A DNA stretch of 64,000 nt from the IMG/VR virus record IMGVR_UViG_3300025678_000009, positions 1 to 64,000 of that record; one strand, given 5' to 3'. Positions 8,150 to 41,704 of this stretch are shown in pieces; position 1 is the first letter of the stretch, and each line of letters begins with the position of its first letter. The notes under the pieces were generated by a model. The model did no database searches. It was given only the letters and a program-made list of their open reading frames with translations, and was not told the DNA's origin. This DNA comes from a virus (Duplodnaviria; Caudoviricetes). A program made the translations under genes and the position numbers.

Positions 8150-9126
8150 TAAATTAATCTAATTTCATTTTGAGTTTCTTCTTTTATATCCTTCAATAAT
8201 TCCATATTTTTAGGATTTGTTAAATAACTATATATATCTTCAGGAACTTTACCAAGTTCTTGTTGAGTTTTTGAATATTCAAACTCTTTAGTTTTTGAAT
8301 TAAATCTAATAACATTTGTAAGAATTGCATATTTAATCATTACTTTGTTAAATAATTCTTCTTTTGACATTTCGGCTACTTTCAAGAAGTTTTTATGATT
8401 ATTTTCTCCACCTCTTACTTTTTCACCCTCTATAATACCATTAATATAATCATCTACTCTTTTATATAATCTCATTTCAGATTCTGAATTATACCCTCTA
8501 TTTGCAGGTAATAGGTATTTGATAACTAAGATGAATTTCTCTCTATCTGTTGAAGATAGTATATCTAAAACACTCGTTGCTTTATTTAATTCTTTTTTGA
8601 AGGAAACCTCTTCTTCTACATCCCTATCAGCATTTACAATGTAATACTTATATTCTCTATTTGATTCTTTAGCTGTAACTAAATCTGGAGCAATTTCAAA
8701 AAACGGATTATGTTTTGCATTCGTTTTTATAATTTCTATTTTTACTAATCCTTCTGGATCATTTGTATCAAAAACCGTTATATCTGATTTTAATTCTAAA
8801 ACCATATCCGCATAAAATGGATTTGGTTTTATGTTAGAATCTTCAGGATTCTGAGGGGCTTTTACGTCATCTACTTTAAAGTGCGGAAATTTTTTATTAA
8901 AGTCCTCTATTTTCTTTTTTATAGATTTTATCTCTTTTTCTTTTGCTTTATCATCTAATTTATCTAAATAAAAAGCATTAATATCAAAACCAGTTAAATA
9001 TTTTCCATATATAACAGGTACTTCTAAATAAGTTTTTGAGCCAGGAAATGCCTGAAACCCATAATCAGATAATCCAATTGAATCTTTTTCTTTCGTCAAG
9101 AAAGGTTTTACTGTAAGTGTTGCCAT
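8149..9126 (-). CDS. Conserved head-module protein of unknown function
   Basis: Intact 325-aa ORF between the capsid and ring genes. Confidence 0.55.
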   Translation of the reverse strand: MATLTVKPFLTKEKDSIGLSDYGFQAFPGSKTYLEVPVIYGKYLTGFDINAFYLDKLDDKAKEKEIKSIKKKIEDFNKKFPHFKVDDVKAPQNPEDSNIKPNPFYADMVLELKSDITVFDTNDPEGLVKIEIIKTNAKHNPFFEIAPDLVTAKESNREYKYYIVNADRDVEEEVSFKKELNKATSVLDILSSTDREKFILVIKYLLPANRGYNSESEMRLYKRVDDYINGIIEGEKVRGGENNHKNFLKVAEMSKEELFNKVMIKYAILTNVIRFNSKTKEFEYSKTQQELGKVPEDIYSYLTNPKNMELLKDIKEETQNEIRLI

Positions 9127-12255: not shown

Positions 12256-14973
12256 TTATTTTTTATTACCTCTATTTTTAGCATTTATTTGAGCAATTTT
12301 TTCATCATTTCTTTGATTTGCTAAATCTCTGGATATTTCCATTTGTTTCATTCGCTCTTTAGATGATAATTCTTGTTTTTTTACATTTAACTTTTCCTTC
12401 TCTAAACTAACTTTCGATTCGGATTCTTTTAATCTATTTGCTCTTTCTTGTTCCTTATTTAAAATATCGGAATATGATTTATGTTGTTCAAGATTAAACC
12501 TCTCTACCTCTAGAGCATCATTTACTCCAGAAGAATCTATATCATTCTCTCTAGCCATACCTGTAGCTTTTACTTCTGCTTCATACATTTTAGCTAATCT
12601 ATCTCTTTCGTTTTGGTCTGCTTGGAATTGTCTATCTTTTTCTTTTTCGGCAGCTTGTGCTTCTAATTGTTGTTGGAGCATTTGTTGTTCATGTTGTTGT
12701 TTTTGTTGCTCTTGTTTTCTGAAGTTTTCTAGAGAAACTGCTAATGTATCCTTTATTTTCCTGGTATCTGTAGCTTCCAACATTATAATTTTATCTAAAT
12801 CTGTTGCTCCAGTAGTGTTATTTTGAATAGCAAATTGTCTAATTTGTTCTAAAACTCTTTGTGTGTCTGAGTTTGATGTTAAGAAAATATTAAATCTCCT
12901 CAAAAGTAAATCCTCGGTATCAATTTCAAACATTACATTTTCTACATCCGAGTTAAGATAATTCAGTCGTGAAATAGGTTTTTTAGACTCTATATATTTT
13001 TCTGCATCTAATATCATGGATTTTAATTCTCTCATGAGATTAGTATTATTAAAATAATATGATTCTGTCTGTGAGTATGAATTATTTATTGCCTGATTTA
13101 TTCCTGTAGCTGTTTCTTGAGAATTAATAGAACCCATCCTCTGAGGAGTAATTCCTATTATCTTTAAAATTTGTTGCTCACAATAATTTGCTAATTCTAT
13201 ACGGGATTTAAATCTTTCATTGTTTAAAAGATTTACTACCATAGGTTGTTGATTTGGAGCAGCTCCTTCTATATTGGATGCAGAGTTATCTGTAGCCCCT
13301 ATACCTGTATCTTTAGCGGTCATTATGAATTTAAGCCAATTGTACTTTCCCCAAGAGCCATCTAAAGATTGTTGTGGGATAAGACGTTGATCCATTAATA
13401 AGAATAAACCAACCTCAAGTTTTGCAAATTTATCAATTTCATTCATAAAACCATTGTACATTACTTGTAAAGCTTTTGTCTTATCTATTAAAGATAGTTT
13501 ACCGACATTCATATTTATTTCAAATCCATCGCAACCTACTACAGGTATTTTTGGTTTGAATGGTTGAAATTCATCAGTAAATTGATATTCTGTAGGTTCA
13601 ACATCTATATATATCCATCCTCTATTAACATCTGCATTTAAGTCATCTGTTTTTTTACCAAAAATAGATTTATCTAAATATTCATTTTCATTTATTACAG
13701 TAGATGGAACTGAACCATAAGCAAAATTAAGTTTAGTACCTTTCCAAACTTGAGGAGCATAGAAGTATTCTAATTCTTCTCCAGCTATAAGTGTTTTATC
13801 TTTATCATATACAGGTTTAATAGTAACTTTAAAAGTATCATCTACTATTTTTTCTATTTTAATTCCTTCATAAATAGCCGTAAGTTTTGCTAATCTTCTT
13901 CTTGACATCCAATATCCTTCTGTTACTAATACTTTAGATGATGCGTCTAATTCTACCCCTCCCATCATATATTTAAATGCAATTAATTTCTTCTCATTTA
14001 TCATAAGAGATTGATTATCATCTGGTTGTAATCTACGTTCAGAAAAAGTTGGAGTAACTCCTAAAGGAGTGTTATATTTTTCAATTAGAGCTTTATCAAT
14101 TTTATCTCTATATTTAGAAACAACATCGTGGATTGTAGTCCAATATTGTCTTGATACTAAATCAGCATCTGTTGTATATTTTACATGTTTTGGTTTTATA
14201 ACCAAAGTATCAAACGGATTCCAATTGATAACCTGAATATCACTATCATCTATACGAACTTCTGAATATGCTTCATCTCCAATTAATTGATGTTTAAATA
14301 ATTCAAGCTCTATTTCTTTTAATTTATATTTATGCTCCGCTTGTTCCATAATTCTATTAGCCCACTCCTCATAATTATTTTTATAGGTACGATTCATGAA
14401 TTTTTGAATTTCTGGGATTGACATTGCTTGTTGCATAGCTTGCTCCATTTGTTTTTGAAAATCTGGATTATCTTGAGAAATACCTTGATTTTCAAGCTGT
14501 TGTGCAATTTTTGCTTGTGCTTTTTGTTGTAAATATTGTAACATCAACTGCTTTTTATACTCTAACGCTTCATTATTAGAGTATTCATCTATAGCCTTTA
14601 CTTTAATGTGGTCAAACTTTTTAAGAAGTTCTCCTGTTAAAACATTTATAATTGTGGGAACAATAGGATAGAATTTAAGATCGTCTGCAACAATATCACT
14701 TTCAGCTAATAAAGAATCTTCCATTGCAGTTTCTACTCCATCAAATATATTTTTATATACATTTACGTCAGCATCAATGTAGTCTTCAACATCTATAACA
14801 CCTTGAGCAATATTATAGTTTTTTATAAGCCTAGCTCTTTTTTCTGGTAGAAACCCTTTCAAAAGCTGTTCCATCCAATCCATGTTAGCTCTTTTCCATA
14901 ACTCATCTTTTTTATCAGAAGGTAAAGCTTGAGGAGGTTGTCCGAATATATTACTATTGTATATTATTGGCAT
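12256..14973 (-). CDS. Portal protein
   Basis: 905 aa immediately after the terminase; GITPQRMG...TATGINQA motif; Q/E-rich C-terminal coiled coil. Confidence 0.85.
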   Translation of the reverse strand: MPIIYNSNIFGQPPQALPSDKKDELWKRANMDWMEQLLKGFLPEKRARLIKNYNIAQGVIDVEDYIDADVNVYKNIFDGVETAMEDSLLAESDIVADDLKFYPIVPTIINVLTGELLKKFDHIKVKAIDEYSNNEALEYKKQLMLQYLQQKAQAKIAQQLENQGISQDNPDFQKQMEQAMQQAMSIPEIQKFMNRTYKNNYEEWANRIMEQAEHKYKLKEIELELFKHQLIGDEAYSEVRIDDSDIQVINWNPFDTLVIKPKHVKYTTDADLVSRQYWTTIHDVVSKYRDKIDKALIEKYNTPLGVTPTFSERRLQPDDNQSLMINEKKLIAFKYMMGGVELDASSKVLVTEGYWMSRRRLAKLTAIYEGIKIEKIVDDTFKVTIKPVYDKDKTLIAGEELEYFYAPQVWKGTKLNFAYGSVPSTVINENEYLDKSIFGKKTDDLNADVNRGWIYIDVEPTEYQFTDEFQPFKPKIPVVGCDGFEINMNVGKLSLIDKTKALQVMYNGFMNEIDKFAKLEVGLFLLMDQRLIPQQSLDGSWGKYNWLKFIMTAKDTGIGATDNSASNIEGAAPNQQPMVVNLLNNERFKSRIELANYCEQQILKIIGITPQRMGSINSQETATGINQAINNSYSQTESYYFNNTNLMRELKSMILDAEKYIESKKPISRLNYLNSDVENVMFEIDTEDLLLRRFNIFLTSNSDTQRVLEQIRQFAIQNNTTGATDLDKIIMLEATDTRKIKDTLAVSLENFRKQEQQKQQHEQQMLQQQLEAQAAEKEKDRQFQADQNERDRLAKMYEAEVKATGMARENDIDSSGVNDALEVERFNLEQHKSYSDILNKEQERANRLKESESKVSLEKEKLNVKKQELSSKERMKQMEISRDLANQRNDEKIAQINAKNRGNKK

Positions 14974-17080
14974 TTAGGTATTTTTTTAAATTTGCATGAG
15001 AAAATCTATTCCTCAACATTAATTTAGCACTTTTTTGATTAAAATTTGAATTTTCTTTTGTATCTTGAGGAATTACTCCTCTTACTTCATTATATTCTGC
15101 TTGTAGTAGTGCTAAGGCAAAAGAATATAATGAGTCATAGTTTCCTTTCTCATATTCTTTTTTAGGTCTATAATTTACTAATTCTCTAAGCAATTGTAAA
15201 TCATTTATTCTCTCTACTCCATAATGAATTGTTGGTTGACCTGTTTCTTCATTATATTCAGTATAAATTGGCTCTTTTAAATATTTAGATACTACGTCTA
15301 AAATTTTTTCAATTAATTTAGGAGTAGTAACCACCCCATAAGGTTTAGTTTGATAAGATGTACCTTGAGGAGTCATATCTCTAACCCATTGAGGAGTTTT
15401 AGCTATTCTATGTTGTTTTTTTATTTTTATAGCTTCTTCTATAAACCAGTTAACGTTATTTTCTACTAAAGCTTCTGCATTATACCACTCCATTAACATC
15501 ATAGCTTTTTCAAACCATTCCATTTTATCTTTTGGTCTGGACATATACTTAGCAACTATTATTTTTTCTTTGTACTCGCTATCCATATTATGAAAACCTT
15601 TATATATATGAATAACATTCATAGAAGGAGAATTAACTGATTCTGAATCTTTCACAATATCTACCCCTGCCCAATATACCCCATATGATGCTTTATTAGC
15701 TGGGGGCATTTCCCATATTTGTATTACCCCATCTTTATCTTTTCTTTTAGGGTCTATTGGATGTTCAAGTATTGGTTTATTGTTATATTTATCTAATAAT
15801 TTATGTTTTATTTCCCCCTTTTCATTCTGATAAAGGTCTATATAAATACCATGTAATTCTCTTCTTTCTACTTTTTCTATTTGAGGTTGTAGAAGTTCTA
15901 AAGGAAAAACATTATCTCCTCTATATTGAAAACATTCTGCTAATGTTAGCGGTGCTTGAGAAATATCAAACTTATCTGCAACTTTTGGTTTTCCTGGTAT
16001 TAAACCAAGTCTGAGTTTTTTAATATACTCTTCTGCTCTCTCTACAAATGAATTACCGTGTTCATCAATGAATGGTTGTCCATAATACTCTGATTCTGGA
16101 TCATCGTCTATACCAAAATAAGCATATGATTCTGGTACAAAAAAACCACATTTTCTGCCAGCAAATTCATTATCTTTATCAAATATATTGTCTATTGAAT
16201 AAAATCCATGTGCTTCTGGGTCAGTCATGTAGTCTTTAAGTCCAGCTTCTAAATGCTTTAACTCACCAACTGCTCCTGAAAAAATAACTGTTCCTGTTTT
16301 AACATTCCCATAAGTCATCATGGAATTTATATACCCTTTAAATTTAGATAAAACAGGATTTACCCCACTTTCATCTCCAAATATCCATTTAGCCCCACCA
16401 CCAACACCTTTTGAAGCAGATTTAGAAAGTACCAAACCTTTTAAAGTATTTTTTCTACCTCTTATTAGTTTTCTTCCATGCTCATCTATAACTTCTTTGG
16501 CAGCTCTCCAATTCAAAGGCTTGGAAGGATTGAAATCTCTATACCAAGGAGTATGAGCATTTATATGTTCTCTATAAGGTTCTATAATTTCAGTCCAAGC
16601 TTTTAAAACCTGAGCCTCTTCATATGTAGCAATATAGTTTGGAGAACCTCTTGAGAAGAACAACTCTCTAACTAATGGTGCACAGAACTTCAATGAAAAA
16701 CCAGCCTGGCGTTTTTTCATTACTACAAAGTCAAGCTTTAAAAATACAGCATGTTCTAAACACAAAAACGTATGATAATCCATATCATATATATCTGGAA
16801 AATCATAAGTATTGTCCTGCTTTCTATAAATAGGAAGATAATTCAAATAGAAATAATATAAACCAGGAATATAAAATCCATCTATCCAAAGTCCTTCTTG
16901 TATTCTTCTTTCTTCTTCATCCCAAAAATCATCAAAATCTTTAGTGTCTTCTATTAAGTCAGTATAATATCCATTTCCCTGAAAAAAAATAGCTCTTTCT
17001 TTCCATTTATAGGTATCTTTCAAGTTATAATGTCCAACTTGTTTTATTTGATTTTTATATTCTTGATCTGATTTTAACAT
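14954..17080 (-). CDS. terL: Terminase large subunit
   Basis: ATPase motifs KKRQAGFS and WIFGDESG; RNase H-like nuclease with GVD...ENN...NYDSLYS. Confidence 0.9.
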   Translation of the reverse strand: MLKSDQEYKNQIKQVGHYNLKDTYKWKERAIFFQGNGYYTDLIEDTKDFDDFWDEEERRIQEGLWIDGFYIPGLYYFYLNYLPIYRKQDNTYDFPDIYDMDYHTFLCLEHAVFLKLDFVVMKKRQAGFSLKFCAPLVRELFFSRGSPNYIATYEEAQVLKAWTEIIEPYREHINAHTPWYRDFNPSKPLNWRAAKEVIDEHGRKLIRGRKNTLKGLVLSKSASKGVGGGAKWIFGDESGVNPVLSKFKGYINSMMTYGNVKTGTVIFSGAVGELKHLEAGLKDYMTDPEAHGFYSIDNIFDKDNEFAGRKCGFFVPESYAYFGIDDDPESEYYGQPFIDEHGNSFVERAEEYIKKLRLGLIPGKPKVADKFDISQAPLTLAECFQYRGDNVFPLELLQPQIEKVERRELHGIYIDLYQNEKGEIKHKLLDKYNNKPILEHPIDPKRKDKDGVIQIWEMPPANKASYGVYWAGVDIVKDSESVNSPSMNVIHIYKGFHNMDSEYKEKIIVAKYMSRPKDKMEWFEKAMMLMEWYNAEALVENNVNWFIEEAIKIKKQHRIAKTPQWVRDMTPQGTSYQTKPYGVVTTPKLIEKILDVVSKYLKEPIYTEYNEETGQPTIHYGVERINDLQLLRELVNYRPKKEYEKGNYDSLYSFALALLQAEYNEVRGVIPQDTKENSNFNQKSAKLMLRNRFSHANLKKYLNANNIQ

Positions 17081-30490: not shown

Positions 30491-32158
30491 ATGAAAACGT
30501 TAAAAGATTTTACTCCTGAAATACAAGCTAAAATACCTGAATACCAAAACAGAGTTTTAGAACCAATTTTTAATGGTTCTAAATACCATAATTTTGATAT
30601 TGAAAAAGCAAAAAAAGCAATAAAATGGAATTATGAAAAATGTGGGTATAAAATGCCAATAGTGTTAGTAGCAGAAAACCCACTAGAGCAACAATATCTA
30701 TTTAATTATTTAAAACTAAATATTAAAAAATACGAGAAAACATTATATGTTTTAAATAATGAATTTGTAGAAATAAAAATAAATGATATAAAATGTAAAA
30801 TAAGCAGCTATTTTATATTGTTTTTTAATTTTACAAATCTAAGCATAGATAATCAGCTTCGTAGTCAGCTTGATAGTCAGCTTAGTAGTCAGCTTGATAG
30901 TCAGCTTAGTAGTCAGCTTGATAGTCAGCTTCGTAGTCAGCTTGATAGTCAGCTTGATAGTCAGCTTAGTAGTCAGCTTTATAGTCAGCTTCGTAGTCAG
31001 CTTAATAGTCAGCTTAGTAGTCAGCTTTATAGTCAGCTTCGTAGTCAGCTTCGTAGTCAGCTTGATAGTCAGCTTAGTAGTCAGCTTGATAGTCAGCTTG
31101 ATAGTCAGCTTAGTAGTCAACTTTATAGTCAGCTTCGTAGTCAGCTTTATAGTCAGCTTGATAGTCAGCTTCGTAGTCAGCTTGATAGTCAGCTTAGTAG
31201 TCAGCTTGATAGTCAGCTTAATAATCAGCTTTATAATCAACTTAATAGTCAGCTTCGTAATGAACTCAAAAAATGTAAACTAAAAGATTTATCAAAATAT
31301 AACCCCAACTATCTGTTTACATTAAACATTTATTCAGAAGTCTATTATACCTGGTTCGAATTTATAAGAAAGGAATTTGACTTACCTTTAACTATTAATG
31401 ATGATTTTCAAGAATGTTTTAAATTACATTCTGAGTCTAATATTTATTCTGCAATTTTTTCAAAAGAAGTTTGTGTTATTTCTAAATATCCTTTAGAAAT
31501 ACATCAGGAAAAAACTCAATTCAGATTAAATAACATAGAAAAATCTGCTGTTATATGGTCTAATTCTTTTGCTCCTTTTGATTGTTACTATGTAAATGGA
31601 TTAAATATTTCTAAAGATTTATTTGAAAAATTATCCAAAAAAGAAGTAACATTTGAGGATTGGATGAAAGAACCAAATGAAGAAATTAAAGCAGCAATAT
31701 TAAGTTTCTATCAACAAAAGTTTGGAGATGAATATTTATTTCAATTTTTATCTAAAAATTTAAAAGAAATTGATACATTTGTAGATAAAAAAGACAGTAA
31801 GTATTTAGAAAGAACTACTAAGGGAATGAACATTGGTGTTTATACTTTATTCAAAGGGAATGTAAATGATGTAGATATAGCTTATATAAGATGTTATTGT
31901 CCATCAACAGATAGAATGTTTTTTCTTGGTGTAAACCCTGAAAATACAAATGCTAAAGATGCAATAGCTTCATTATATCAAGTTCCACGAAAACTTAAAG
32001 ATGAAATAGTTAGTATCCAAAGACAAGGTGAAATTTTTAGTACTAATTTTACAGAAAATGGATTATTTTTACTGAAAGAAATGAAACAAGAAGATATACA
32101 AGACATGACATCTATTTCAGGAAATGATTATTTTAAACTAATAAAATATGAATATTAA
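30491..32158 (+). CDS. DUF6745-like protein with tetrapeptide repeat
   Basis: QLxS repeat region, then YxxWFEF...SKYP...RL...AVIW, and C-terminal YIRCYCPSTDRMFFLGV...RQGE. Confidence 0.65.
   Translation: MKTLKDFTPEIQAKIPEYQNRVLEPIFNGSKYHNFDIEKAKKAIKWNYEKCGYKMPIVLVAENPLEQQYLFNYLKLNIKKYEKTLYVLNNEFVEIKINDIKCKISSYFILFFNFTNLSIDNQLRSQLDSQLSSQLDSQLSSQLDSQLRSQLDSQLDSQLSSQLYSQLRSQLNSQLSSQLYSQLRSQLRSQLDSQLSSQLDSQLDSQLSSQLYSQLRSQLYSQLDSQLRSQLDSQLSSQLDSQLNNQLYNQLNSQLRNELKKCKLKDLSKYNPNYLFTLNIYSEVYYTWFEFIRKEFDLPLTINDDFQECFKLHSESNIYSAIFSKEVCVISKYPLEIHQEKTQFRLNNIEKSAVIWSNSFAPFDCYYVNGLNISKDLFEKLSKKEVTFEDWMKEPNEEIKAAILSFYQQKFGDEYLFQFLSKNLKEIDTFVDKKDSKYLERTTKGMNIGVYTLFKGNVNDVDIAYIRCYCPSTDRMFFLGVNPENTNAKDAIASLYQVPRKLKDEIVSIQRQGEIFSTNFTENGLFLLKEMKQEDIQDMTSISGNDYFKLIKYEY
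30854..31261 (+). repeat. Coding tandem repeat, about 34 x 12 bp (CAGCTT-NNT-AGT)
   Basis: Encodes QL[R/D/S/Y/N]S; variation is almost confined to one codon per unit. Confidence 0.95.
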
Positions 32159-32348
32159 ATTCATGATTATTCTATCAACCATTTTATGTATATTTGCTAA
32201 TTGTATTAGATTTGCAGAATTAGCAGACTATACAATAATTACAAGTTTTAAAGATTATTTAAAAATTAATAATTATATAACTTTAAAATATAATTTTGTA
32301 TGGTTATTAATAACTTGTATATTAATTTTTATTCATTATAAACTTTAA
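32148..32348 (+). CDS. Small membrane protein
   Basis: Two hydrophobic segments. Confidence 0.45.
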   Translation: MNIKFMIILSTILCIFANCIRFAELADYTIITSFKDYLKINNYITLKYNFVWLLITCILIFIHYKL

Positions 32349-32352
32349 AAGT

Positions 32353-32853
32353 ATGACTGATTTTTTTAAATATAAAGGATATACTATTTTTAAAAATGGT
32401 GATATAATAGGTAAATATAATAAAAAATTATCCCCAAAAGATAATAGAAAAGGTTATAAAACAATTGGAATACACTTTGATAATAAAGTAAAATATGAAT
32501 ATATACATAGATTAATCGCTATTCATTTTATACCAAATCCTGAAAATAAGCCTTGTGTTAATCATATTGATGGAAATAAAAGTAATAATTCTGTAGATAA
32601 TTTAGAATGGGTTAGTTATTCAGAAAATGTAAAACATGCATATAACAACAATTTATGGAATAACCAAATAAAAAATAATAGAGTAGGTAAAAACAGTTCT
32701 AAAAAAGTTATAGATATATCTAATAGTAAGATATTTAATTCAGCAAAAGAGTTATCAGAAGAGTTAAATATAAATTATACTCACTTATTACAAAATTTAA
32801 GAGGGGAAAGAAGAAGTAAAAATTTATCAAAATTTAAATATTTAAACAAATAA
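32353..32853 (+). CDS. Free-standing HNH homing endonuclease (with NUMOD1-like C-terminus)
   Basis: YIHRLIAIHFIPNPENKPCVNHIDGNKSNNSVDNLEWVSYSENVKH. Confidence 0.9.
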   Translation: MTDFFKYKGYTIFKNGDIIGKYNKKLSPKDNRKGYKTIGIHFDNKVKYEYIHRLIAIHFIPNPENKPCVNHIDGNKSNNSVDNLEWVSYSENVKHAYNNNLWNNQIKNNRVGKNSSKKVIDISNSKIFNSAKELSEELNINYTHLLQNLRGERRSKNLSKFKYLNK

Positions 32854-32855
32854 AA

Positions 32856-33101
32856 ATGGAAAATTTAAAAGAGAAACAAAGAGTCAATGTTGCAAGTAAA
32901 GAATCTACAAACGGTCATTGGTGTAAAGGTGCAAAAAAAGTAGTAATGTTAGATAAAATTACAGAAACTTCATTTATTGAGGGAGATTGTATTTTATCTA
33001 CAAAAAACCATACAGATTTAGAAATGAAGTCTGATTGTTTAATTACAATTCAAAATGTGTATAATCCTTTAACACAAATGTTAGAAAAATCAAAAGATTA
33101 A
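32856..33101 (+). CDS. Small beta protein, likely partner of the DUF6745-like protein
   Basis: STNGH...TKNH...IQNVYNP...SKD echoes the GHxH...HxxH...QxEYxP...VxD pattern of genes that accompany DUF6745. Confidence 0.5.
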   Translation: MENLKEKQRVNVASKESTNGHWCKGAKKVVMLDKITETSFIEGDCILSTKNHTDLEMKSDCLITIQNVYNPLTQMLEKSKD

Positions 33102-34567: not shown

Positions 34568-34653
34568 ATTTTAAAGAAACACAAATATGTCAAACGAAGA
34601 ACAAAACGGCTTTTTTTGCCAATACATTGTTAGCAGCAGTAACGGATTTAAAA

Positions 34654-34842
34654 ATGGAACATTCAAAACAAGAAAAAGAAATTTACGAATTAGCAGAACT
34701 TTTGATGCAGTCTGAAAACTTAGAAGCAAGTGCAACTATCCTTCGTGATTTTGCTGAAAAATGTTACCAAGAAGGTGCAATAGATGCTCAAAATGATGCG
34801 GCAAAAGAAATACGTGAACACTATGTAGAAGGTGGTCGGTAG
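34654..34842 (+). CDS. Cassette A ORF (62 aa, hypothetical)
   Basis: MEHSKQEKEIYELAELL...EGGR; the TAG stop overlaps the cassette end GTTATTGCTGCTAAC. Confidence 0.65.
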   Translation: MEHSKQEKEIYELAELLMQSENLEASATILRDFAEKCYQEGAIDAQNDAAKEIREHYVEGGR

Positions 34843-34849
34843 TTATTGC

Positions 34850-34926
34850 TGCTAACGGGATGCAGCTATACGCAGTTGTGTGTAGGATTTGTGCGGTGGG
34901 AAAATTGCGTATAGGTGCTGTTATAT
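34850..34926 (+). other. attC-like site 1 (77 bp)
   Basis: TGCTAAC...GTTATAT; arms GCAGCTATACGCAGTT (34862-34877) / AATTGCGTATAGGTGC (34903-34918). Confidence 0.8.
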
Positions 34927-35021
34927 GAAGTAGGGATTATTTAGCAGAAACTTCATTTGGAACACGAAAATAAATTTAAAATAAAAGCCTTGGGCGGGCT
35001 TCGTAAAACCCAATAAATAAA

Positions 35022-35309
35022 ATGGATAAATTATCTGACGCACCATTAGAGTCAATGGTTGCACCAATACAAAGAGAGCCTAAAATGGGCAAGGTTTACA
35101 TCGGAACAAAAGTAATCCGTGCAGAACCTATGAGTAATGAAGCGTGGCTACGTTCACAAAACAAATGGCAGGAAGGACAAGAAACTGCTGGTGATGGCTA
35201 TAAAGTTCAATACGAAGATGGTTACTTATCTTGGTCGCCTAAGCACGTTTTTGAACGCTGTTATCGTGAGCTTACGCCACAAGAAGTAGGAATGGTAATC
35301 GAGTATTAA
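35022..35309 (+). CDS. Cassette B ORF, widespread phage domain (YIGTKVIRAEP...GYKVQYEDGYLSWSPKHVFE)
   Basis: Recognisable motif of a domain often fused to DUF2829 or other small phage domains. Confidence 0.7.
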   Translation: MDKLSDAPLESMVAPIQREPKMGKVYIGTKVIRAEPMSNEAWLRSQNKWQEGQETAGDGYKVQYEDGYLSWSPKHVFERCYRELTPQEVGMVIEY

Positions 35310-35382
35310 TTATCAGTGCGGTGGGGCTTTTATTTTAAATTTCTAAACGAAATGCTTAATCGAAGCTCTACCGTCCTATTTC

Positions 35383-35515
35383 ATATAACGGTAAACGGCT
35401 ATGCTTAGTGCCGATTTTGAAAGACTAAGCTAATTTTAAACAACAAATTTTTATATGGAAAATACAGGATTATTTAACGCAGAAGGTAAGGCATTGAGCA
35501 TAGCCGATGTTATGG
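35383..35515 (+). other. attC-like site 2 (133 bp)
   Basis: ATATAAC...GTTATGG; arms CGGCTATGCTTAGTGCC (35396-35412) / GGCATTGAGCATAGCCG (35490-35506). Confidence 0.8.
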
Positions 35516-35664
35516 CTATGTTGCCAACCGCAATGATTAACAGAGTTGAAGTGATTGACGAAAATGGCAGGAGCTACGTTAATTGGAAACCAGCAAACAG
35601 AACCGAATTACAGGTGCAAGATAATGGCAGAACGCTAAAAGTATTCGTGTCGCAAGGCAATTAG
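35455..35664 (+). CDS. Cassette C ORF (69 aa), start codon inside attC 2
   Basis: INRVEVIDENGRSYVNW...ELQVQDNGRTLKVFV; stop TAG abuts CCATAAC. Confidence 0.7.
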   Translation: MENTGLFNAEGKALSIADVMAMLPTAMINRVEVIDENGRSYVNWKPANRTELQVQDNGRTLKVFVSQGN

Positions 35665-35767
35665 CCATAACGTTTTGCGGCTTGGTGTCTGTTATTTTGC
35701 CTTGCAGACATTTCAAGTTTTAGATAAATTTAATAGGTAAAATAATAGCACTAAGCCGCTGTTAGTG
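35665..35767 (+). other. attC-like site 3 (103 bp)
   Basis: CCATAAC...GTTAGTG; arms GCGGCTTGGTGTCTGTTATTTTGCC (35677-35701) / GGTAAAATAATAGCACTAAGCCGC (35736-35759), with one bulged T. Confidence 0.85.
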
Positions 35768-35791
35768 GCTGGTGCGGTAAATTAAACTAAA

Positions 35792-36058
35792 ATGAAACAG
35801 ATAGACAAAACTTTCTATTCTCTTTGCGAAGAAATAGACGATTTAAAAGAAGCAGTTGAATATTGGAAAACAATGTATGAAACTGAAAGAGCAACTAACA
35901 ATAAGATGCTTAATGATAATTTAGAAACTGCGAAACAAGGCGTTGCAAATGCTTTAAGGTTTGCTCTTTCGGTTTCAGATGACGAAAATGGAAACTTGGT
36001 TATTAGTAAAGAGAATAGAAAAGATTTAGCAGAAAATTGGATTGGAAGCGGTAAGTAG
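35792..36058 (+). CDS. Cassette D ORF (88 aa, coiled-coil hypothetical)
   Basis: Stop TAG overlaps GCACTTGCCACTAAC. Confidence 0.7.
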   Translation: MKQIDKTFYSLCEEIDDLKEAVEYWKTMYETERATNNKMLNDNLETAKQGVANALRFALSVSDDENGNLVISKENRKDLAENWIGSGK

Positions 36059-36065
36059 CACTTGC

Positions 36066-36198
36066 CACTAACGGTTCACGGCTTGTTGTCAGGCGGGGAT
36101 TTAGAACCACAAATTTTCAATAAACAATAAAACTTAATAAAATGAGCGAAATTTCAAACAACCACGAAACCGCCAATGGCACAAAACCCGTGTTATCG
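36066..36198 (+). other. attC-like site 4 (133 bp)
   Basis: CACTAAC...GTTATCG; arms ACGGCTTGTTGTCAGGCGG (36078-36096) / CCGCCAATGGCACAAAACCCGT (36170-36191). Confidence 0.75.
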
Positions 36199-36540
36199 GC
36201 TGTTTTTCTTCATCAGAAAATCGAAAAGTTAATCCCATTTATAAGTGAGGAATTTATCACTTATCCACTTTTGGAGGAAGGCAAATACATACCTTTCTTA
36301 AAATGCTGGCAAAAAGCAGATACGGAAAACAAATGTACTCGGTTGTCAAATAGATTAAATAAGCACTTTGAAAAAACAGGTTATGAAATTTCATTTATTG
36401 GCAAAGAACATAGAAGCGTTATTCACGAATTTTACCTTTACCCAAAGTGGAAAGAATTAAAAAACGGTTCTTATAAATTTGTCAAAAAAGATTGGTCTAT
36501 TGAGGAAATGTTGGATTTGTTGGGTTATGTCCTAAAATAG
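36142..36540 (+). CDS. Cassette E ORF (132 aa), start codon inside attC 4
   Basis: N-terminal MSEISNNHETANGTKPVLSAV is encoded by the attC right arm; stop TAG abuts CCGATAAC. Confidence 0.7.
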   Translation: MSEISNNHETANGTKPVLSAVFLHQKIEKLIPFISEEFITYPLLEEGKYIPFLKCWQKADTENKCTRLSNRLNKHFEKTGYEISFIGKEHRSVIHEFYLYPKWKELKNGSYKFVKKDWSIEEMLDLLGYVLK

Positions 36541-36606
36541 CCGATAACGGTATCGGGCTTGGCGCATGTATTTTTGGCGATTTTGAAACGATAAATTTTA
36601 AATAAA

Positions 36607-36714
36607 ATGGAAACAGCAAGAGAATTTACATTAAGGAAGTACCCTGAATTATGGGGTAAAAATCACAACGCAGGTGATATTATCAGAGCAATGGAAGAAT
36701 ATGCGAATTGGTAG
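36607..36714 (+). CDS. Short ORF (35 aa) after the truncated fifth attC
   Basis: METAREFTLRKYPELWGKNHNAGDIIRAMEEYANW with A-rich start context. Confidence 0.4.
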   Translation: METAREFTLRKYPELWGKNHNAGDIIRAMEEYANW

Positions 36715-36769
36715 AACGCTTCTATCATTGTCGATAGCACACTGAAAATATTTTTTTAATAAATAACAA

Positions 36770-37479: not shown

Positions 37480-38502
37480 ATGAGTAAGAAAAAATGGACA
37501 AATGAAAAAATAGAATGGTTAAAACAAAATTATGAAAATAAATCTATATCAAATTATGATATTGTGAAATATTTAAATATTGACTGGATAACAATAACTA
37601 AAAAAGCATCTCTTTTAAATCTAAAAAGAAAATTTAGAGAAAATTCTAAGTTATTTAATTTTAATACTACTATATGTGATGATTATAAAACAGGTAAAAG
37701 TATACCTAAATTAGCAATTGAATATAATTGTTCTAAAGATAGCATAAGACAAATTCTTATTAAAAATAACATTAATAGAAGATCTGCCCTAGAAAATAAA
37801 AGACAATTCTCTTACGATAAAAATTATTTTGAAAAAATTGATTCAAAAGATAAAGCCTATTTTTTAGGTTTATTATATGCTGATGGGAACGTGTTTGCTA
37901 AAACAGGATCTGTTCAATTATCTCTTCAAGAAAAAGATGGTTATATTTTAGAAAGATTTAAGGAATATATTAATTATGAAGGAAATCTCAAATATAAAAA
38001 TATAAAAGCAAATAAAAAAAATTCACAGAATATGTGGCTTTTTAGAATAACTAGTATAGAACTATGCAAACAATTAATAAAATTAGGTTGTGTTCCAAGA
38101 AAATCCCTTATTTTAACTTTTCCAACAGAAGAACAAGTTCCAAAAGAATTTCAATCTCATTTTATTAGAGGGTTTTTTGACGGAGATGGGTGTATTTATA
38201 TCAGCAATAAAAGCATAAGTTCATCTTTCACATCAACAAAAGAATTTTTGCAGGAAGTACAAAAAATTTTAATCAAAGAAGTTTCTTTAAATCTAACAAA
38301 ATTAACTCGTAAAAAAGCAAATAAAAATACTTATAGTTTCAATATAAGTGGATTTTACCCCTTAAAACGTTTATATGAATATTTATATAAAGATTGTGAT
38401 GATTTGTATTTAGAAAGAAAAAAAGAAAAAATCCATGAATTTACTCCACAAAGAAAGGAAAGAAAAACTTCTGAAAAATATAAAATGAGTTTAATTGTTT
38501 AG
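37480..38502 (+). CDS. Free-standing two-motif LAGLIDADG homing endonuclease
   Basis: AYFLGLLYADG and HFIRGFFDGDGCI motifs; N-terminal HTH-like repeats. Confidence 0.9.
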   Translation: MSKKKWTNEKIEWLKQNYENKSISNYDIVKYLNIDWITITKKASLLNLKRKFRENSKLFNFNTTICDDYKTGKSIPKLAIEYNCSKDSIRQILIKNNINRRSALENKRQFSYDKNYFEKIDSKDKAYFLGLLYADGNVFAKTGSVQLSLQEKDGYILERFKEYINYEGNLKYKNIKANKKNSQNMWLFRITSIELCKQLIKLGCVPRKSLILTFPTEEQVPKEFQSHFIRGFFDGDGCIYISNKSISSSFTSTKEFLQEVQKILIKEVSLNLTKLTRKKANKNTYSFNISGFYPLKRLYEYLYKDCDDLYLERKKEKIHEFTPQRKERKTSEKYKMSLIV

Positions 38503-38547
38503 AAAGATTATTTTCAATTTGGATAGAAAACAAAAATTATAAGATAT

Positions 38548-39966
38548 ATGAATACTAAAAGAAAAGTAAAGGATTACATGGGGCAAGATGTGGCTATTTA
38601 TTGTTCTTCTAAAGAAGAATGGGATAAAATAGTTGATTTATTTGACAGCCCCACAGTAAAAAAACATTATTGGGAAAATTTTATCAATGGGGGAAAGTCA
38701 GATACTATTAGAATAACAGGGTGTGGGTGGAGTCCTAAAGAACATTTTATTAAAAAAAATTATACCATTTATCCAGCATTTGATTTTTTAGAAGAAGATA
38801 AACCATTTAATGTAGGAGGTTTAGTTTATTTAGAAAAACACTATAAACATGAAACGGAAAGTAGAGACTATTCTATTGATTTACCTTTGAATTCCCCTTT
38901 AGAAATTAAAAGTATAGATTTTACTTCAAATGTTTATAATAATAGACAAAAAGAATGGACATTATGGTTTAAAGGTAAATCACTTGAATATCCTGCTTGT
39001 AAATTTAAATTGTGGCAAAACACTAGCGAATTACAAGAAATTAAACCAAAGGTAGAAATGTTACCTTATCCAACAGATAAGAAATATTTTAAAGCAGTTG
39101 TTACTAAAGATATTCATAAAAAGGATTTAGTTACTAAAGGGAATATACCCGAATTAATACCTAAAGGGTATCAAACTTGGTTTATATTAGATGGTACACT
39201 TTGGGAAGAAAGGATATTATCAAAGGAAGATGATGTGTGTCCAGAAAATAATAGATGGGGTGCAAATATTCCTGCTGAATATTTTGAAATAGTAGAAGAT
39301 AAAAAAGCTTTTAAATTTGAAGAAGGTAAATGGTATTCTTTTAATTGGGATTGGCATAGTTCTAATTCCCCAGTTATAGCTAAAATAAAAAATGTATTTG
39401 AAAATTCCATTAATGTAAGTTGGAGAAGTTATTTGTGGGGAGAAAACGATTATGATACATCAGGTACATATCTCTTTGAAGATATTTCAAATATCAAAGA
39501 GTTATCAATAGAACAAGTACAACAATATCTCCCAGAAGGTCATCCTGATAAATTCAAAGTTGAAACACCTATTAATAATACTCCATTCAAAGTAGGGGAT
39601 TATATAACGATAATTGACGCTAAAACTAATAAAAGTGAATCTATTGGAGATGTATTAAAAATAACTGAAATAATTGATGAAGGGAAAAATTATGGATTAT
39701 GGTTCAAACATATTCCAGAATCATTTTCAGGAGGAGGTTTTAGATATAATACGTATAAAGACAAGATTAGACGAAGTACTCCCGAAGAAGTAAAAAATTC
39801 ACTTATAGTTTCTCAATATCCGTTAACCCCCAAACAATGTTTTGAAGCAAAACCCTTAATTAAAAATAGAAACCCTGTAGTAAAAGAAACTATCAAAAAG
39901 AGAAATAGATTAGAAATTAAACCAATTAAACAAACGATTAAATTAAAACATTATGTCAACATCTAA
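38548..39966 (+). CDS. Mosaic multi-module hypothetical protein
   Basis: Series of short SH3-like/beta modules (FNVGGLVY, FEEGKWY, FKVGDYI). Confidence 0.55.
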   Translation: MNTKRKVKDYMGQDVAIYCSSKEEWDKIVDLFDSPTVKKHYWENFINGGKSDTIRITGCGWSPKEHFIKKNYTIYPAFDFLEEDKPFNVGGLVYLEKHYKHETESRDYSIDLPLNSPLEIKSIDFTSNVYNNRQKEWTLWFKGKSLEYPACKFKLWQNTSELQEIKPKVEMLPYPTDKKYFKAVVTKDIHKKDLVTKGNIPELIPKGYQTWFILDGTLWEERILSKEDDVCPENNRWGANIPAEYFEIVEDKKAFKFEEGKWYSFNWDWHSSNSPVIAKIKNVFENSINVSWRSYLWGENDYDTSGTYLFEDISNIKELSIEQVQQYLPEGHPDKFKVETPINNTPFKVGDYITIIDAKTNKSESIGDVLKITEIIDEGKNYGLWFKHIPESFSGGGFRYNTYKDKIRRSTPEEVKNSLIVSQYPLTPKQCFEAKPLIKNRNPVVKETIKKRNRLEIKPIKQTIKLKHYVNI

Positions 39967-40348
39967 AAAAGTATCAAAATTTGTAGCAGCTAATTTGAAA
40001 AAATTAAACAAAACTGAAAAAGAAGTTCAACAAGAAAAAATTGAAAGATTCGTAGAAGATGCAACAATTGAAGCAGAAACTCAAATTGCAATTATTAAAA
40101 CTTCAACTCTACCTAGATTAGAGAATGAATTGAAGCGATTAGAAATTAATTTGAAAAGAGAAAAAGATAATTTTGAGGAGGCAAGATTTTCAGTAGCTAA
40201 TTCTTTTGCTGAATATGTATCTAAACGAGAAAGAGTTTTAGATGAAATTGATGGAATCAACGCTTTAATCTCTCACAAAAAAGAGGATATTGAAAATGCT
40301 AAAGCAGAATTAGCAACATTGGAATCAATTTTAGAAGATTTAAAATAA
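39953..40348 (+). CDS. Coiled-coil hypothetical protein
   Basis: Heptad-rich; followed by a hairpin at about 40371-40396. Confidence 0.55.
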   Translation: MSTSKKVSKFVAANLKKLNKTEKEVQQEKIERFVEDATIEAETQIAIIKTSTLPRLENELKRLEINLKREKDNFEEARFSVANSFAEYVSKRERVLDEIDGINALISHKKEDIENAKAELATLESILEDLK

Positions 40349-40411
40349 GATTAACAATTTGATAGTTTTAAAAGGTAGGTGAAATATCCCACCTTTTATT
40401 ATTTTTATTGT

Positions 40412-41704
40412 ATGATTACAATATACACCATTTGTTTTAATGAAGAATTAATCTTACCATTTTTTGTTAAATGGTATAGAAAAAAATTCCCAAATTGTAG
40501 AATAATAATTTATGATAATTATTCTACAGACTCTACAGAAAAAATAGCTTTACAAAATAATTGTCAAGTTATAAAGTATGATTCTAATAATCAAATTAGA
40601 GATGATTTATACTTAAACATAAAAAATAATTGTTGGAAAGATGCTGAAACTGATTGGGTTTTAGTTTGCGATGTTGATGAACTTCTCGATATAAATCAAA
40701 CACAATTAATTGGGGAAAATTGTAGTATTATCCTTTCAAAAGGATATAATATGATTAATATAGAAGATAATTTAGATTTAGAATCAATTAACTATGGAAT
40801 AAGGGCAAAGCAATATGATAAATATTACTTATTTAATAGATTAAAAATCAAGGAAATAAATTATGAAGCAGGATGTCACTCTTCAAATCCTGTTGGGGAA
40901 GTTATATTTAGTAAAAATATTTACAATTTGTATCACTACAATATGTTAAGTGAGCAATATCTTATAAATAGATATAAAAGAAATTTTGAAAGACTTTCCA
41001 AAGAAAATAAGAAAAATGGATGGGGAATTCACTATAAAGAGAATGAACAAACTATTAAAGATAAATTTAAAGTAGCTAAACAATGGTTTAGTGAAAATAA
41101 GACATTTAACCCAGAACAAGCAATAAATATTAAAATGATACAACATAATTATACAGAAATAGAAGGTTGGTTTAATATGGAAAATCAATACCTCGAATTA
41201 TTAGAGAATACTCCAGATGGAGGAATATTTGTAGAATTAGGAACATATAAAGGTAAATCTACTTCATTTATCGTTACAGAAATGTTAAATAAGGGTAGAA
41301 ATGTTAAATTTTATACTGTAGATACATTTCAAGGAGATAGTGGTTCTACAGATAAACAAGAAGTAGAAGCATATACAAAAGTAAATGTTTCTAAAATGTA
41401 TGAAGAATTCAAACAAAATACTAAACATTTAGAAGGTAAATTTACTACAATGGTAAATTATTCAGATGAGGCTACTGAATATTTTTTAGACAATTCTGTA
41501 AATTCATTATTCATAGATGCAGGACACTCCTATGAAGCTGTATTAAAAGATATTACAGCTTGGTTGCCTAAAATGAAGAATGGCGGAATTATGTCAGGAC
41601 ATGATTATAATAGTTGGGAGGGAGTTAAAAAAGCAGTGAATGAATTGTTAGGAACTCCTGATAAAGTAGAAAATGATTGTTGGTTTGTAAAAATTAAAAA
41701 ATGA
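40412..41704 (+). CDS. GT-A glycosyltransferase fused to class I SAM methyltransferase
   Basis: IYDNYSTD...WVLVCDVDE (GT-A DxD); FVELGTYKGKST...LFIDAGHSYEAVLKDITAWLPKMKNGGIMSGHDY (Methyltransf_24-like); ATG at 40412. Confidence 0.85.
   Translation: MITIYTICFNEELILPFFVKWYRKKFPNCRIIIYDNYSTDSTEKIALQNNCQVIKYDSNNQIRDDLYLNIKNNCWKDAETDWVLVCDVDELLDINQTQLIGENCSIILSKGYNMINIEDNLDLESINYGIRAKQYDKYYLFNRLKIKEINYEAGCHSSNPVGEVIFSKNIYNLYHYNMLSEQYLINRYKRNFERLSKENKKNGWGIHYKENEQTIKDKFKVAKQWFSENKTFNPEQAINIKMIQHNYTEIEGWFNMENQYLELLENTPDGGIFVELGTYKGKSTSFIVTEMLNKGRNVKFYTVDTFQGDSGSTDKQEVEAYTKVNVSKMYEEFKQNTKHLEGKFTTMVNYSDEATEYFLDNSVNSLFIDAGHSYEAVLKDITAWLPKMKNGGIMSGHDYNSWEGVKKAVNELLGTPDKVENDCWFVKIKK

Follow-up and report, generated by a model that had tools for sequence, protein, structure and literature searches.

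Do the imperfect hairpins between small phage genes belong to the gene in front of them or to the gene behind them, and do they hand that gene its start codon? This question is raised by an island at 34570-36740 of the virus record IMGVR_UViG_3300025678_000009 (Duplodnaviria; Caudoviricetes), which represents a Bacteroidota phage. The stretch analysed, hereafter the window, is the first 64 kb of this 81.7 kb IMG/VR record (~25% GC; estimated completeness 42%). The island has a GC content of ~37% and comprises six small open reading frames (ORFs A-F) on the + strand, with hairpins between them (Table 1). A sequence-only reading had taken each hairpin for the attC-like 3' end of the preceding cassette, with a crossover at G|TT, and had proposed that it acts as a portable translation-initiation module, which would place the following gene under position-dependent control. 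The present analysis favours, with a probability of roughly two in three, that the hairpins are a Bacteroidota-wide family of attC-like recombination sites that form the own 5' ends of inverted cassettes in phages, and not a position-dependent switch.

Hairpin structure, distribution and polarity

A scan of the whole 64 kb for arms enclosed by YAAC and GTTR boxes recovered four sites with duplexes of -21 to -39 kcal/mol, and nothing elsewhere was better than -16 kcal/mol. Cognate arms pair at -21 to -33 kcal/mol, compared with -8 to -17 kcal/mol for non-cognate arms, and the hairpins are far beyond chance. Related phage loci were gathered through homologues of ORFs C, D, E and B, the contexts of ORF E also by a metagenome scan, and an alignment of 31 long phage sites (A3) served to build a covariance model (R1). 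Members of the family share a layout in which two arms form a stem of ~17 bp, with a conserved G.T wobble, around a variable loop; 5 nt separate YAAC from the left arm, and 1 nt separates the right arm from GTTR. In A3, AAC and GTT are invariant and 89.6% of the cells in the 17-bp stem are paired, as against 64% in shuffled alignments (0 of 500 shuffles reached the observed value) and 35-49% in slid ones. Compensatory changes occur at 15 of the 17 stem pairs. The R-box is 99% and the L-stem 87-94% paired, TAAC and GTT(A/G) are invariant or nearly so, a G directly follows AAC in at least 90% of sites, and the wobble is present at one stem position in 23 of the 31 long phage sites. The asymmetry of the site consists of its unequal spacers (5 nt vs 1 nt) and the conserved G.T wobble.

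Applied to the complete 81.7 kb record, R1 detects exactly four sites, all on the + strand. Its E-values are rough, and it misses the shortest sites, such as P12002L_attC1, so that site counts are lower bounds. A short-loop subfamily (~50-55 nt) with the shared loop TCGTTTTAATG, which includes the published P12002L_attC1 and is mostly missed by R1, was seen in L011 (2714-2764), L020, L021 and L023 (3' of C homologues) and in L173 (30005-30058, - strand). Searches of the hairpins against Rfam gave only noise, and scans for promoters and terminators gave nothing above shuffled sequence. Each ORF of the island is, moreover, bracketed by its own inverted repeat of 8-15 nt (GTTA.../...TAAC). Five such pairs of complementary ends were found (I9, I21, I14, I12, and GTTATATG/CATATAAC).

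The same hairpins occur in bacteria. According to the taxon labels given for the records of metagenome-assembled genomes (MAGs), R1 matches are present in 119 of 151 genomes sampled from the family of G008, a Flavobacterium MAG, and in 44 of 61 from the order of G007, a Bacteroidales MAG, with scores of up to 113 bits; none was found in five non-Bacteroidota genomes. The bacterial sites form chromosomal arrays, with at least 16 of them within 16 kb of locus L201, where the cassette-specific end complementarity recurs. Among 41 bacterial sites the G.T wobble occupies the one stem position in 40, and 94.8% of cells are paired; the alignment was fitted to the model, which biases the percentage upward and leaves the identity of the wobble unaffected. 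At the edge of four arrays (G101, G147, G194 and G162:C16), a Xer-like tyrosine recombinase is encoded in the same orientation as the ORFs. Its score on NF040815, 'tyrosine recombinase/integron integrase', is 232 bits (cut-off 220); the integron-integrase model TIGR02249 gives 192 bits, short of the cut-off of 265. Another chromosomal array, with at least four sites (G162:C27, 271325-276459), has no homologue of the Xer-like recombinase nearby. Two near-identical units of a hairpin plus adjoining segment lie in L201 on the G147 chromosome (6443-6573 and 8420-8550); the upstream cassette ends differ, and the duplicated unit begins exactly past CAAC. In L200 of G101 (13367-15289) three sites end in GTGTGTGCCCAGCATGGGCA in place of the usual GTT box, an indication that the core box holds a secondary insertion common to them or a target sequence.

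The bacterial arrays also fix the polarity of the sites. On the sense strand of the ORFs they read G|TT...ORF...AAC-hairpin-G|TT and have the look of canonical integron cassettes; 39 of 46 sites have flanking ORFs that are antisense to the model strand. In the window and in related phages, by contrast, the ORFs lie on the model strand, inverted with respect to the bacterial arrays, and because of this inversion each hairpin lies 5' of its own ORF. Since the bacterial arrays read as canonical cassettes on the ORF sense strand, the + strand of the window would, by analogy, be the equivalent of the attC 'bottom' strand, the one that folds. This assignment agrees with the wobble pairs on the model strand, with the G after AAC, and with the model strand not being the mRNA-like strand in bacteria, which argues against a purely RNA function. 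By the same analogy, we infer that the crossover would be at AA|C of the + strand and not at G|TT. The canonical polarity, with the + strand as top strand, was considered first in view of the longer left-arm spacer, and was rejected by the breakpoints described below and by the bacterial arrays.

ORF C retains the arms and loop of site 2 in about ten phage or MAG contexts (the window, L011, L012, L014, L016, L017, L019, L021-23 and L103), and the sequence left of TAAC is different each time. On its right side homology always stops at CCATAAC, and the next hairpin differs in 12 of 12 contexts. In L091, ORF D and site 3 are conserved as a pair between breaks at the two TAAC boxes, and ORF E with its hairpin is found behind at least six different upstream sequences. 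A distant E homologue in L003 has its own ATG, yet a homologue of site 4, without a loop start, precedes it. In L003, a different hairpin comes after the tail of cassette B, which ends in CATATAAC. Judged from these junctions of homology, the breakpoints at TAAC/AAC for C, D and E show that the inherited unit is the hairpin plus its downstream ORF. The assumption that the hairpin closes the preceding cassette and recombines at G|TT is not supported, as the breakpoints are at TAAC in about 12 C contexts, in L091 for D and in six or more contexts for E. Position-dependent translational control would then not be the rule, because a hairpin that moves with its gene leaves start and N-terminus unchanged upon ordinary shuffling.

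Exchanges of a different kind were also found. In L015, an unrelated ORF body follows a site-2-like module, and the C body stands behind a different module whose leader spans 51 codons; in several C proteins the break lies at DV|MAM. In L134, the left arm of one E-type hairpin is combined with the right arm of another, and unrelated modules stand ahead of E in L145/L146 and L002. These exchanges at the GTT box or inside loops look secondary to the crossover at AAC. When the strand-choice features of attC sites are removed or inverted, the crossover moves to the other core box (PMC2727003), which makes it plausible, by analogy, that both core boxes are used in sites lacking extrahelical bases. 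The notion of a portable initiation module survives for cases such as the site-2-like module of L015, whereas the dominant unit is the hairpin with its downstream ORF.

Start codons inside the loops

Two of the four complete sites in the window, the two long ones, contain a loop start, and the short sites 1 and 3 contain none. As the sequence-only reading had stated, ORF C starts at ATG 35455 in the loop of site 2 and ORF E at ATG 36142 in the loop of site 4, and both frames run through the right arm and G|TT. In site 2 the frame is GAT GTT ATG, with G35509 at codon position 1, and in site 4 it is GTG|TTA (36190-36195), with G36192 at codon position 3. Loop, right arm and GTT box together encode the first 17-19 codons of ORFs C and E, and the predicted N-terminal peptides are MENTGLFNAEGK.. 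and MSEISNNHETANGTK.., respectively. The A/T-rich leader noticed around both starts recurs in the phage family, where long-loop sites hold such a leader, the ATG and the first 14-21 codons inside the hairpin. Of the 40 long phage sites, 27 have an ATG in the loop that continues into an ORF for at least another 30 codons; this holds for 0 of the 21 short phage sites and for 7 of the 45 bacterial ones (Fisher p = 1.7e-6). These counts take in related sequences and are not fully independent. In these fusions the junction G is at codon position 1 in 12 cases, at position 3 in 13 and at position 2 in two.

In the C family (279 homologues, mostly 69-71 aa), N-termini resembling MENTGLFNAEGKALSIADV persist in members with as little as 65% identity. 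A comparison of five close variants gave a synonymous divergence (pS) of 0.284 and a nonsynonymous divergence (pN) of 0.034 (ratio 0.12) for loop codons 2-11, and a pS of 0.377 and a pN of 0.023 for the ORF body. For codons 12-22, encoded by the right arm and GTT box, pS is 0.063, and the synonymous divergence in the right-arm codons is thus six-fold lower. These rates indicate that the leader is under protein-level selection and that the arm is under an added nucleotide-level constraint. An N-terminal tag supplied to C by whichever neighbour precedes it is not compatible with an N-terminus that is conserved and under purifying selection.

ORF E presents a different picture. Its body contains no in-frame ATG until near the C-terminus. 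The usual start of the E family, M(I/L)HQKIEKL at the F22 position, has been lost in the lineage of the window, leader included (cf. L003, L153), and the body shows a pN/pS of 0.09 over 12 variants without an ATG of their own. All 13 E variants examined possess an in-frame, stop-free loop ATG, with at least eight different leaders. The expectation that N-termini vary with the upstream site is thus borne out for E. Conservation of the frame across G|TT holds throughout the E variants and breaks down in L007 and between site 0 and ORF A, where the frame is not kept. Loop starts appear to be translated. According to the favoured explanation, the loop-type N-terminus of ORF C is old and conserved, and ORF E is a derived form dependent on the loop ATG. 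An origin of the loop ATG from an ancestral 'CAAATG' motif was rejected: the motif occurs in few of 45 bacterial sites, and 34 of the 45 lack a read-through ATG.

Both arrangements occur in a third family, whose proteins are 229-276 aa long and share the motif (L/V)ACEESQ.VTKELR..GHEA (L003 3545-4234; L022 ~2790; L011 3824; L170 354; L103 3092): the gene has its own start after the hairpin in L022, and a loop start plus leader in L003 and others. In the Polaribacter phage P12002L (L173), early genes are separated by some nine hairpins with this layout, situated on the sense strand of the genes (31114-32925 and 38032-40949, - strand), and the small annotated genes gp57 and gp41 lie almost entirely within long loops.

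Related systems and rival explanations

The likeness to integrons is extensive. The sites resemble attC in their inverted YAAC/GTTR core boxes, in an imperfect palindrome conserved in structure with a variable loop, in the G after AAC and in one strand folding better than the other. Complementary cassette ends, arrays of small co-oriented ORFs and a bacterial tyrosine recombinase at the array edge are also integron-like. In attC, the bottom strand carries the G after AAC, and two or three extrahelical bases on the R''-L'' arm set the strand choice (Bouvier 2009, PMC2727003). The present sites differ in having no extrahelical bases, in place of which they show the 5/1-nt spacers and the G.T wobble. 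The array recombinase is Xer-like, falls below the integron-integrase cut-off and is co-oriented with the cassettes, and the window itself has no integrase, inverted ORFs, and hairpins that precede a gene and hold its start. Start codons inside a recombination site have been described for ORF-11, ORF-17, ORF-18 and aacA4 fusions at attI1 in class 1 integrons (PMC8876359). There, too, the site contains an initiation region with a frame across the crossover, serves cassettes without signals of their own and sometimes gives rise to N-terminal fusions. However, attI1 is a single site at the array head, depends on a Shine-Dalgarno sequence and acts mostly by translational coupling, whereas the starts described here belong to the loop of a cassette's own hairpin and in most cases move with the gene.

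More than half of Bacteroidales genomes contain rAID-1 recombinase-associated gene clusters (Ross et al. 2019, bioRxiv 10.1101/471110), and the R1-detected, recombinase-adjacent arrays in G101, G147, G194 and G162:C16 share their architecture. The published rAID-1 motifs come without a hairpin model, crossover or strand, and neither phage-borne arrays nor inverted ORFs were reported. rAID-1 cargo consists of orphan immunity genes against interbacterial toxins, whereas the window has no recombinase and its cargo no recognised immunity domains. In virulent phages, attC clusters lacking an integrase (CALINs) have been reported (Qi et al. 2023, PMC9892861). The window is similar, with four complete sites and two half-sites in an 81.7 kb record without a PF00589 match, and P12002L_attC1 has the form GCTAAC-N6-stem-loop-stem-AT-TGTTAGG between two genes, on their sense strand. 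HattCI alone had predicted P12002L_attC1, and it was the one site that IntI1 failed to recombine (PMC9892861). Qi et al. treated such sites as ordinary attC, and loop starts, polarity and a bacterial counterpart were not described. Finally, the promoter/stem-loop (PeSL) cassettes of T4-type phages, for which mini-circles were observed (Arbiol 2010, PMC2839356), are likewise short structured intergenic modules beside small non-essential phage ORFs that mark junctions of modular shuffling. PeSLs, however, combine a promoter with a terminator, are conserved in sequence and move by homologous recombination, whereas the present sites covary, lack a promoter or terminator signature, have complementary ends and are shared with a recombinase-linked bacterial system. 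A literature search, incomplete in its coverage, found no account of these hairpins, their polarity, inverted-ORF phage cassettes or loop-embedded starts.

According to the favoured explanation, the hairpins separate cassettes in bacterial chromosomal arrays that adjoin a co-oriented Xer/IntI-like tyrosine recombinase, which may recombine them as folded single-stranded DNA. In phages the cassettes carry their ORFs inverted, each hairpin thereby coming to lie at the 5' end of its own gene. The lineage of ORF E, having lost its own leader and ATG, would rely on the loop ATG. Shuffling at the main crossover would carry hairpin and gene together and leave the start unchanged, and the rarer exchanges at the GTT box or within loops produce alternative N-termini in frame. 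A bolder version, which we regard as possible but tentative, is a phylum-wide integron-like system of Bacteroidota and their phages with a Xer-like recombinase and 5/1-spacer hairpins whose strand is fixed by the G.T pair. Phages would possess a separate pool of inverted cassettes in which the hairpin has been co-opted as the 5' end and the loop serves as an exchangeable initiation and N-terminal module, genes being re-headed in frame by recombination at the second core box or inside the loop.

Several observations weigh against the favoured explanation. The failure of P12002L_attC1 with IntI1 concerns the only site of the family tested experimentally, and no recombinase of the PF00589 family was found in the record of the window, nor in a set of five related phage records that includes one of 100% completeness. 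Extrahelical bases are absent and the L-stem arms are equal in length. The breakpoints are not resolvable within the conserved TAAC and GTTA letters, and the exchanges in L015, L134 and the E variants of L145 and L002 imply that the AAC crossover is not exclusive. That the bacterial arrays correspond to rAID-1 is deduced from architecture only, with the published repeat motif given only in a figure. With regard to the loop starts, the site counts given above are partly dependent on each other, the junction codon of position-3 fusions is always NTG (GTG, TTG or ATG) and thus a possible true start, and ORF C contains in-frame ATGs at 35512 and 35518, directly after GTT, the first of which is where the database entry P0179 begins.

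The last two of these points favour an incidental loop extension, with translation starting at the GTT box or past it (from ATG 35512 in C and from GTG 36190 in E) and the hairpin being untranslated 5' sequence. The high variability of the E leaders would also fit. It is nevertheless hard to reconcile with this that the loop codons of C combine the low pN/pS with a substantial pS, that the position of the ATG and its peptide are conserved to 65% identity, and that each of the 13 E variants retains an ATG in an A/T-rich loop with a stop-free stretch of 15-21 codons, a frame that 34 of 45 bacterial sites do not have. In addition, the junction codon sits at the stem base without an A-rich unpaired context, and we consider such downstream starts very improbable. 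Equally improbable is the original proposal of a preceding cassette's 3' attC with a G|TT crossover that acts as a portable, position-dependent module. It draws on C bodies whose unrelated N-termini break exactly at ..DV|MAMLPT (P0109/L015, P0119, P0134, P0171), on the site-2-like module that feeds another ORF body in L015, on the eight or more E N-termini that are always in frame, and on the ACEESQ-motif family with its own start in one locus (L022) and a loop start in another (L003). The dominant breakpoints are at TAAC, however, a downstream hairpin is never conserved with an ORF, and the bacterial arrays fix the opposite site polarity. The conserved N-terminus of C under purifying selection and the out-of-frame cases (site 0/ORF A and L007) speak against it as well, and the related right arms in most E variants point to co-evolution of hairpin and gene rather than to repeated capture.

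Alternatively, the hairpin might be a 5' structure of the mRNA that exposes the start codon in its open loop and regulates translation or stability, with shuffling by homologous recombination between boundary motifs, as in PeSLs. The sense strand with its G.U pairs indeed folds better in phages (-21 to -39 vs -18 to -27 kcal/mol), the start codons lie within A/U-rich loops, exchanges occur inside loops too, and the phage records examined contain no recombinase. In bacteria, however, the strand with the near-invariant G.T (40 of 41 sites) is antisense to the cassette genes, and the mRNA would carry C.A mismatches there. The end complementarity of 8-15 nt, which a circular or excised intermediate predicts, would have no role, and the proximity of a tyrosine recombinase, the lack of an Rfam match and the lack of an excess of terminator-like sites likewise count against an RNA element. 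On this balance an mRNA function appears unlikely.

If the attC-like reading is correct, a structured recombination site can sit within coding sequence under a double constraint, as the six-fold suppression of synonymous change in the arm illustrates. Such coding sites would explain the odd N-terminal leaders common to many small Bacteroidota phage genes and have consequences for annotation, as ORFs of this kind are cut short or extended too far by gene callers (the lengths listed for the E family are 98-189 aa). The Bacteroidota 'integron-like' repeats of rAID-1, until now known as motifs only, would gain a hairpin model, a strand and a likely crossover and be linked to the phage 'CALINs', and the failure of P12002L_attC1 with IntI1 would be explained. 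Classical integrons are nearly absent from Bacteroidetes genomes (PMC9024848), and an active platform shared by hosts and phages, if it exists, would represent a route of gene traffic in this phylum.

The island and its surroundings

Table 1. Hairpin sites and ORFs of the island; crossovers are predictions by analogy with attC
Feature	Position	Strand	Predicted crossover	Details
Site 0, orphan right half-site	34587-34631	+		Left island edge; loop ATG 34587, right arm, GTT 34629-34631; no left arm
ORF A, 62 aa	34654-34842	+		ATG 34654, 25 nt past GTT; ends GTTAGCAGCAGTAAC (34629) and GTTATTGCTGCTAAC (34842), inverted repeat I9
Site 1, short hairpin	34853-34926	+	AA|C, 34855/34856	No loop start codon; duplex -25.7 kcal/mol; R1 41.4 bits, E 3.9e-7
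ORF B, 95 aa	35022-35309	+		phrog_9467 family; own start, 102 nt past site 1 GTT; cassette ends GTTATATG (34921) and CATATAAC (35383)
Site 2, long hairpin	35386-35515	+	AA|C, 35388/35389	TAAC 35386-35389, left arm ~35396-35412, loop, right arm 35490-35506, GTT 35509-35511; duplex -34.9 kcal/mol; R1 87.8 bits; inverted repeat I8
ORF C, 69 aa	35455-35664	+		Start in site 2 loop; right arm encodes codons 12-19; stop TAG abuts CCATAAC
Site 3, short/medium hairpin	35668-35767	+	35670/35671	No loop start codon; duplex -39.0 kcal/mol; R1 45.8 bits
ORF D, 88 aa	35792-36058	+		Own start 31 nt past site 3 GTT; ends GTTAGTGGCTGGTGC (35761) and GCACTTGCCACTAAC (36058), inverted repeat I14
Site 4, long hairpin	36069-36198	+	AA|C, 36071/36072	TAAC 36069-36072, loop ATG 36142, GTT 36192-36194; duplex -20.9 kcal/mol; R1 94.1 bits
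ORF E, 132 aa	36142-36540	+		Start in site 4 loop; ends GTTATCGGCTGTTTT (36192) and AAAATAGCCGATAAC (36534)
Site 5, orphan left half-site	36545-36714	+		Right island edge; TAAC 36545-36548, left arm, loop; no right arm or GTT box

Both edges of the island are marked by half-sites with a loop ATG of their own, which opens a 42-aa frame, out of frame with ORF A, in site 0 and a 35-aa ORF (36607-36714, from ATG 36607) in site 5. The idea that sites 5 (36545) and 0 (34587) are the halves of a single hairpin opened by an insertion was rejected, as their duplex of -9.6 kcal/mol compares with a shuffle mean of -8.6 kcal/mol. Within cassette B (34920-35390), ORF B is enclosed by a further, nested inverted repeat of 18 nt without mismatches (34972-34989 / 35325-35342), and an ORF-less version in L003 (3395-3476) consists only of the homologous 3' tail of the cassette, ending in CATATAAC. 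ORF B may thus be a secondary insertion into an 'empty' cassette.

None of ORFs A-F has a significant Pfam domain, and their PHROG matches are only to families of unknown function. An Atlas search with ORF E returned nothing, a megablast search of 20 kb against isolated phages gave zero matches, and the sole tblastn match of ORF C among isolates was one distant Ruegeria phage. The island is flanked by genes for a glycosyltransferase, HNH and LAGLIDADG endonucleases, and other phage genes. The HNH (HNH_3) endonuclease gene (32353-32853) is 1.7 kb and the LAGLIDADG endonuclease gene (37480-38502) 0.8 kb away from the island, and no connection between the cassettes and these two genes was seen. 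A 555-aa ORF at 30491-32158 contains ~34 tandem 12-nt repeats (about 30850-31260) that encode SQLx.

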